The position numbers and the translations under genes are program-made. DNA of 64,000 bases from contig NC_086097.1 in NCBI RefSeq assembly GCF_963921235.1, positions 151,902,001-151,966,000 on the forward strand, given 5' to 3'. Shown one piece after another: positions 15,901 through 16,873 of this stretch (within the stretch, counting starts at the first letter, position 1; the number at the start of each line of letters is the position of its first letter). Below the pieces are notes generated by a model. It saw only the letters and a program-made list of their open reading frames with translations, made no database searches and was not told the origin of the DNA. Source of the DNA: Mobula hypostoma. Taxonomy: Eukaryota.

Positions 15901-15946
15901 TAGCCTCTTTAATTTGATTCCCACCCCCCAACCATTCTAGTTTAAA
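12915..15946 (-). pseudogene. CR1 D ORF2: APE endonuclease plus reverse transcriptase
   Basis: NARS, GITETWL, YRPP, MGDFN, SDH; YLDFQKAFD, PQGSVLGP, FADD. Frameshifting deletion near 15200 (GAACCAAC) and a TGA at 13542-13544. Confidence 0.95.
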
Positions 15947-16873
15947 GTCACCTCAGTAGCCCCCGCTAATCTCCCTGCCAGGATCTTGGTCCCCCTAGGA
16001 TTCAAGTGTAACCCGTCCTTTTTGTACAGGTCACGCCTGTGCCAAAAGAGGTCCCAATGATCCAAAAACTTTAATCCCTGCCCCCTGCTCCAATCCCTCA
16101 GCCACGCATTTATCCACCACCTCATCGCATTCCTACTCTCACTGTCGCGTGGCACAGGCAGTAATCCCGAGATTACTATCTTTGCGGTCCTTTTTCTCAA
16201 CTCCCTTCCTAGCTCCCTATATTCTCCTTTCAGGACCTCATCCCTTTTCCTATCTATGTCATTGGTACCTATATGTACCACGACCTCTGGCTCCTCACCC
16301 TCCCACTTCAGGATATCTTGGACACGATCAGAAATATCCCGGACCCTGGCACCAGGGAGGCAAACTACCATCCGGGTCTCTAGACTGCGTCCACAGAATC
16401 ACCTATCTGACCCCTTTACTATCGAGTCCCCTCTCACAACTGCCCTCCTCTTCCTTGCCCTACCCTTCTGAGCTACAGGGCCAGACTCTGTGCCGGAGGC
16501 ACGGCTACTGTCGCTTCCCCCGGGTAAGCTGTCCCCCCCCAACAGTACTCAAACAGGAGTACCTGTTGTTAAGGGGCACAGCCACCCGGGTACTCCCCAT
16601 CACCTGACTTTTCCCCTTCCCCCTCCTAACCGTGACCCACTTGTCTGCCTCCCGTGGCCCTGGCGTGACCACCTGCCTTCCACTCCTCTCTATCACCTCC
16701 TCGCTCTCCCTGACCAGACGAAGGTCATCGAGCTGCAGCTCCAGTTCCGTAACGCGGTCCCTTAGGAGCTGCATCTCGATGCACTTGGCGCAGATGTAGA
16801 CGTCCGGGAGGCTTGGAGACTCCAGGGCCTCACACATCCGACACCGAGAACAGCAAACTGCCCTCACAGTCAT
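15937..16873 (-). pseudogene. CR1 D ORF1: CxxC..CxxC zinc finger, coiled coil, SGNH esterase
   Basis: CSRCRM..CAKC, LRDRVTELELQLDDL, CLPGARV, HIGTND, DGLHLN. One frameshift in a C8 run at 16533-16540. Confidence 0.92.

Follow-up and report, generated by a model that had tools for sequence, protein, structure and literature searches.

How the second open reading frame (ORF) of a long interspersed nuclear element (LINE) comes to be translated is still unsettled. In mammalian L1, whose bicistronic RNA, like that of CR1, has a second ORF to be translated, ORF2 is thought to initiate independently of AUG (PMC5009743). The Dictyostelium elements TRE5-A and TRE3-A, which are APE-type retrotransposons without long terminal repeats (non-LTR), are stated to require a -1 frameshift for the translation of ORF2 (PMC5911963), and in two-ORF Penelope-like elements ORF1 may be set off by a frameshift with a pseudoknot (PMC8557442). 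The heptamer U_UUA_AAC is described as among the most shift-prone on mammalian ribosomes (PMC5009743). Here we examine the ORF1/ORF2 junction of two copies, D and E, of the LINE CR1 in a 64,000-nucleotide (nt) stretch of the Mobula hypostoma genome (NC_086097.1, positions 151,902,001 to 151,966,000; hereafter the window, to which all positions refer). No repeat group is more abundant in chicken than CR1 (PMC11835228), which is also widespread in reptiles and sharks. By comparison of junction sequences and ORF1 protein ends, we find that the junction is a real and deeply conserved candidate -1 frameshift site of esterase-type CR1 LINEs. It is likely that ORF2 of these elements is made as an ORF1-ORF2 fusion by programmed -1 frameshifting at U_UUA_AAC.

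A slippery heptamer where ORF1 meets ORF2

On the minus strand, ORF1 of D ends GTG ACT TTA AAC TAG, and the -1 frame is open across this site. It is open from 15952, where it reads GDFKLEWLGGG, and reaches the APE endonuclease domain at a NARS motif at codon 89. The first ATG of ORF2 in D is codon 218 (15301, in IMGDFN), inside the APE domain; in E it is codon 62 (47020), just past NARS. The original prediction had claimed that ORF1 of D ends in an in-register T_TTA_AAC followed by its stop with ORF2 in the -1 frame, that E has the same layout at 47188-47197 with its first ATG after NARS, and that a G tract lies within about 10 nt of the heptamer. All of this is borne out by the sequence, the spacing of the G tract being 10 nt in both copies (Table 1).

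The combination of TTTAAAC and a stop codon occurs twice in the window when both strands are counted, and these two occurrences are the D and E junctions. Any canonical slippery heptamer stands directly before 43 of the 6629 stop triplets in the window (0.65%). We rejected D and E as independent witnesses, because they share one module of ORF1 plus junction and so count as a single observation: they are 80% identical over 1143 nt, from ORF1 to about 60 nt beyond the stop (16999-15878 against 48247-47129, minus strand). The amino acid identity of their ORF2 products is 37% in APE and 53% in the reverse transcriptase (RT). A closely similar ORF1 joined to a divergent ORF2 suggests an ORF1 module swap that brought the junction signal along, and exchange of ORF1 between lineages has been described (PMC4120745).

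A third, old CR1 copy, whose esterase is 31% identical to that of D, ends GAT TTA AGC TAA at the codon aligned to the end of D, and its -1 frame reads GFKL. A fourth relic near 54330 may carry a decayed junction and was set aside as too broken to count. One further heptamer-plus-stop with a single mismatch, at 23719-23728 (minus strand), lies upstream of another CR1 ORF1 fragment and off the junction, and is likely to be a chance match.

According to the frameshifting model, most ribosomes would halt at the UAG and release the ORF1 protein (ORF1p). A minority would slip back to UUU and AAA, the tRNAs concerned being Leu-tRNA (on UUA) and Asn-tRNA (on AAC), and would translate onward across a variable linker as far as APE and RT. 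Their product, a zinc finger-coiled coil-esterase-APE-RT protein, would stand at a fixed low ratio to ORF1p in the manner of gag-pol, and the adjacent stop together with the G-rich segment 3' of it are likely enhancers. D and E are dead, and any slippage at the site would have taken place in the elements from which they derive.

Conservation of the junction among relatives

Conservation was followed in a set of 121 ORF1 homologues from two overlapping searches (30 of 30 matches and the best 120 of 227, respectively). The comparison across species uses protein C-termini, with codons inferred except in the window, in contigs from public sequencing runs and in three chimeras. Leu-Asn followed by the stop (LN) ends 84 of the 121 homologues. 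A DGLHL motif is recognisable in 92; LN ends 80 of these and IN one, and of the rest two read RALN and then continue, three switch to the ORF2 frame and six have other ends. LN also ends four of the 29 homologues without a DGLHL match and five of 11 further ORF1-type matches that were examined. The named LN-enders come from rays, sharks, Acipenser, Latimeria, Xenopus, Hyla, Leptobrachium, turtles, Zootoca, Podarcis, Erythrolamprus and Calypte, and the lowest pairwise identity is 27%. When 78 tails of 26 residues are aligned from DGLHL, the last residue is N in all 78 and the second-last is L in 77, and at positions -3 to -8 the most frequent residue reaches a frequency of just 0.27-0.42.

The residue before LN carries information at the codon level, because its codon supplies the first U of the heptamer. 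It therefore needs an NNU codon, and K, E, Q, M and W are excluded. In 80 LN-enders this residue is mainly G (25), A (16), T (11), Y (9), S (5), C (4), D (3), E (2) or H (2), with I, L and F also present; one residue further upstream, E, Q or K occurs in 41 of the 80. We thinned the 84 LN-enders by identity and took the background for K/E/Q/M/W, 24.6%, from seven neighbouring helix positions. These five residues precede LN in 1 of 68 sequences at <90% identity (P about 1e-7), 1 of 43 at <80% (P=2e-4), 1 of 26 at <70% (P=0.024) and 0 of 11 at <60% (P=0.037), and these P values are optimistic because the sequences share ancestry, which tells to that extent against the frameshifting model.

Some evidence is available from DNA itself. 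In three predicted chimeras (P0010, P0043 and P0064) a one-base shift takes the esterase into the ORF2 frame; each has FKL at the junction, and this sets the underlying DNA as TTT AAR. In contigs of four public runs (5215, 5124, 2 and 303 contigs, aligned at no less than 80% likeness), 17 places between 15896 and 16009 vary at 4% or more, most of them third codon positions of ORF1. In these contigs no such place falls within 15911-15961, the 51 bases around the heptamer that include the G tract. A variant-free gap of this size arose in 20 of 20000 random placements, a count to be read in the knowledge that the variants are subfamily markers rather than independent events, and that depth dips at the gap in run X1. 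In run X10, one loose end shows another family, which reaches the site via a Gly GGT codon followed by TT; the RNA label of this run is a guess and we do not claim expression.

Searches for DNA of relatives gave none in viral contigs and no plasmid match. A metagenome scan gave five weak loci and a genome scan seven, the latter in contigs titled bacterial; the one weak locus examined (L001) carries a distant esterase ORF without an LN end. CR1 proteins of vertebrate type (P0036, P0288 and P0027) appear in the databases under Pseudomonas, Aeromonas and a frog parasite, which looks like host DNA contaminating the assemblies.

We conclude, mostly from the protein ends, that the site is kept beyond coding needs. 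With somewhat less confidence than we attach to the fusion itself, we think it rather probable that stop-adjacent U_UUA_AAC shifting is the ancestral and general ORF2 route of esterase-type CR1 across jawed vertebrates, from sharks to birds. The RT would then be a fusion that brings along a coiled coil and a lipid-binding esterase, the shift signal and about 60 nt downstream of it would move with a swapped ORF1, and shifting would work without a classical pseudoknot.

Stimulators and competing explanations

Several observations weigh against frameshifting at this site. An LN end is missing from 37 of the 121 homologues, most of which are truncated or chimeric models; Glu precedes LN in two of 80 LN-enders; and the evidence across species is mostly at the protein level, with inferred codons. 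Local folding is no better than that of shuffled sequences in six of six junction segments (z -0.15 to 0.86; pseudoknots not modelled), Rfam gives 0 matches, and a quadruplex motif of four G3 tracts (three-tier) is absent from the D and E junctions. An in-frame esterase-APE family is absent among the 150 best matches with P0064, which counts only weakly.

The original prediction of a fusion made by -1 frameshifting stands in its register and overlap and is well supported by conservation in relatives, more so than its proposed G-quadruplex component. With the motif missing from both copies, a three-tier quadruplex stimulator is ruled out, and since a two-tier quadruplex is predicted in D alone and folding equals that of shuffles, a quadruplex stimulator of any kind is poorly supported. 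G4Hunter scores are 1.48 for D and 1.20 for E, and both junctions rank in the top 2-3% within their own element. In published constructs, four G3 tracts placed after the heptamer gave up to about 7% shifting at a spacing of 6-8 nt (PMC3919603), an arrangement that the D and E junctions do not have. A weak minimum-energy fold shared by D and E begins at the last base of the heptamer, which is the wrong position for a stimulator, and was likewise rejected. The best duplex partner of the G tract within each element is a pyrimidine-rich stretch of the ORF1 zinc finger (16835-16800 in D and ~48090 in E, minus strand), at -23 to -24 kcal/mol; this pairing is probably compositional.

Further contrary observations concern the start of ORF2. 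Two RefSeq models of the stingray Hypanus begin MGGG, aligned to a TTG just past the stop in D and E; this TTG is in frame at ORF2 codon 8 in both copies, 5 nt past the stop, and in D it lies at 15931-15929, ahead of the G tract. The family of these models carries one more Met, some 43 residues ahead of NARS, at a position where E reads ATA, and other relatives begin at an unaligned linker Met 13-91 residues before NARS. The earlier statement that ORF2 has no usable AUG thus holds for the dead copies D and E and fails for related families with an in-frame linker Met. Because it is not family-wide, termination-reinitiation becomes the main rival, and one that could coexist with frameshifting. 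Ribosomes would stop at the UAG and restart a few bases on at an AUG or near-cognate UUG, or independently of AUG, giving a separate ORF2 protein (ORF2p). The conserved heptamer might then act to pause ribosomes or to retain the 40S subunit; alternatively, frameshifting and reinitiation might both operate. A Met stands at the site of the TTG in P0128, P0286 and P0149 and one position on in P0123, and the precedent of an AUG-independent start in L1 (PMC5009743) means that a missing AUG does not exclude reinitiation, which again speaks against frameshifting. However, reinitiation explains neither the tandem-slippage register, with NNU before UUA AAC, nor the open -1 frame across the site; the linker Met positions vary by family over the range given above; and at some of the Met starts, which prokaryotic-type gene callers assigned, the codon may be TTG or GTG. 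On balance we regard reinitiation as unlikely.

Alternatively, ORF1p might need Leu-Asn-COOH, and the heptamer would be a by-product of codon choice and descent. The terminal Leu lies on the i+4 hydrophobic face of the last helix, whose periodicity it extends, and its possible structural role is one more point against the frameshifting model; D and E also have the site in common by descent. The solved homologue nevertheless ends before LN: in the crystallised ZfL2-1 esterase (construct D136-I302), residue 169 of 171 aligns to profile position 307 and the chain ends about two positions short of LN. In the literature, the esterase of avian, Anolis and Xenopus CR1 is delimited at an R or E, which we read as the -4 residue (PMC3905857, Table S1). 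For P0001, a close homologue, the AlphaFold model ends the last helix at 305 and has residues 309-311 as coil with a predicted local distance difference test (pLDDT) score <50, which is weak evidence because termini often score low. Protein constraint would further have to accommodate the preference for NNU-encodable residues just before LN, at a position that otherwise varies, and the choice of TTA among the six Leu codons by all three copies in the window and by the three chimeras. A protein role for LN looks unlikely from these sequences and models, and as an account of the heptamer we consider it, even combined with descent, very improbable.

It is similarly hard to credit another RNA-level role, in which the junction would pair with the 3' end of the element or direct splicing or internal initiation for ORF2: the duplex of the 25 nt past the heptamer with the 3' tail in D (-21.1 kcal/mol) ranks within the best 12 of 895 windows, but is matched by 50 of 500 tail shuffles, that of E (-11.8 kcal/mol) is matched by 417 of 500 and is no better than average, the D tail segment is already engaged in the 3' stem-loop, and no joint was seen across 181 nt in the single run guessed as RNA, a weak test. 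Long-range pairing between junction and 3' end is thus not supported by the shuffles.

The two copies and their relation to known systems

D and E are dead relics, with stops and frameshift mutations in both. Read on the minus strand, D consists of a 5' untranslated region (UTR), ORF1 and an APE-RT ORF2, followed by a stem-loop and terminal repeats of 8 nt at the 3' end (Table 1). Its ORF1 is disrupted near 16535 by a frameshift and at 16401-16399 by a stop. A 3' stem-loop and short terminal repeats are typical of CR1. Pfam identifies Lipase_GDSL_2 in ORF1 of D (E=7.7e-16), and Exo_endo_phos and RVT_1 in ORF2, so that APE and RT are both present. The ORF1 profile matches the ZfL2-1 esterase structure 4C1B (E=1.2e-38), the model of P0001 has a long helix at 29-64, and the closest named match to the D esterase is a Mobula protein (93%). 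On the basis of this architecture and of ORF1 homologues in turtles, lizards and birds, D and E are provisionally assigned to the esterase-type LINEs of the CR1 clade rather than to L2.

Table 1. Positions in the window of the junction features and of the elements that carry them.
Feature	Position	Strand	Remarks
Slippery heptamer U_UUA_AAC of D	15940..15946	-	X_XXY_YYZ register with ORF1
ORF1 stop UAG of D	15937..15939	-	immediately 3' of heptamer
G tract GGGGGGTGGG of D	15920..15929	-	10 nt past heptamer; candidate stimulator
Heptamer and stop of E	47188..47197	-	AGT TTA AAC TAG
G tract GGGGGGTGGG of E	47171..47180	-	10 nt past heptamer
Junction of third, old CR1 copy	19545..19554	-	T_TTA_AGC + TAA, 6/7 match
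5' UTR of D	16874..17358	-	includes 151-nt direct duplication, 96% identical
ORF1 of D	15937..16873	-	Cys zinc finger, coiled coil, arginine-rich linker, SGNH esterase
ORF2 of D, -1 frame	12915..15952	-	linker of ~85 codons, APE endonuclease, reverse transcriptase; three pieces
3' UTR of D	12817..12914	-	stem-loop 12881-12843 and terminal 8-nt repeats
ORF1-plus-junction module of E	47129..48247	-	80% identical to D; ORF2 behind it divergent

The halves of the 5' UTR duplication of D lie at 17358-17209 and 17186-17036 (minus strand). Inside ORF2 of E, in opposite orientation, lies a GIY-YIG-bearing, Penelope-like element (~44230-45740, plus strand) with a 70-nt repeat near both ends. CR1 copies of differing ages are nested head to tail on one strand at 7900-20000 (minus strand), and a decayed gypsy-type LTR retrotransposon with RT, RNase H and integrase occupies 59936-63087 (plus strand), its end interrupted by a CR1 RT fragment.

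In their layout D and E resemble the vertebrate esterase-type CR1 elements (ORF1 type IVB, subgroup CR1_7; Metcalfe and Casane, PMC4120745) and ZfL2-1 (PDB 4C1B), which join an ORF1 of zinc finger or leucine zipper and esterase to an APE-RT ORF2. Our searches of open-access literature found no report of CR1 frameshifting; the classic CR1 papers and Repbase lie outside this coverage, and an earlier proposal is possible. PMC4120745, PMC3905857, PMC4316615 and PMC8665684 do not use the word 'frameshift' in their main text, and the whole word 'CR1' does not occur in the first 300,000 of the 449,034 characters of the Atkins review. Papers examined on frameshifting and CR1 concern gag-pol of avian leukosis virus (ALV; PMC11835228), decay mutations (PMC4255032) or other elements.

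Of the elements with which we began, TRE5-A and TRE3-A belong to another lineage and have another ORF1, and we liken them to CR1 from the stated frameshift requirement (PMC5911963). Some Penelope-like elements bear an SGNH esterase, as CR1 does (PMC3905857), but they carry GIY-YIG and not APE, and a pseudoknot is reported for them (PMC8557442), whereas none was found at the CR1 junction, where pseudoknots were not modelled. L1 has a spacer between its ORFs and an unconventional, AUG-independent ORF2 start, in contrast to the CR1 ORFs, which overlap at the slippery site (PMC5009743).

If the frameshifting model is correct, CR1 ORF2p has been mis-delimited and would be a gag-pol-like fusion with a set ratio of ORF1p to fusion, which bears on the annotation and expression of CR1 proteins. 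For the translation of the second ORF in LINEs, the conserved heptamer narrows the question to seven bases.

Stop-adjacent heptamers occur in some viruses. Compared with viral X_XXY_YYZ sites more widely, the CR1 junction differs in that its stop lies directly past the heptamer, that it is carried by a non-LTR element, and that no pseudoknot or stable hairpin was detected 5-9 nt downstream (pseudoknots not modelled). It shares with the coronavirus U_UUA_AAC and retroviral gag-pol sites the same heptamer in the same register, with a structural protein upstream and the polymerase in the -1 frame (PMC5009743). A coronavirus-type shift site would thus sit in an old family of vertebrate genomic repeats.
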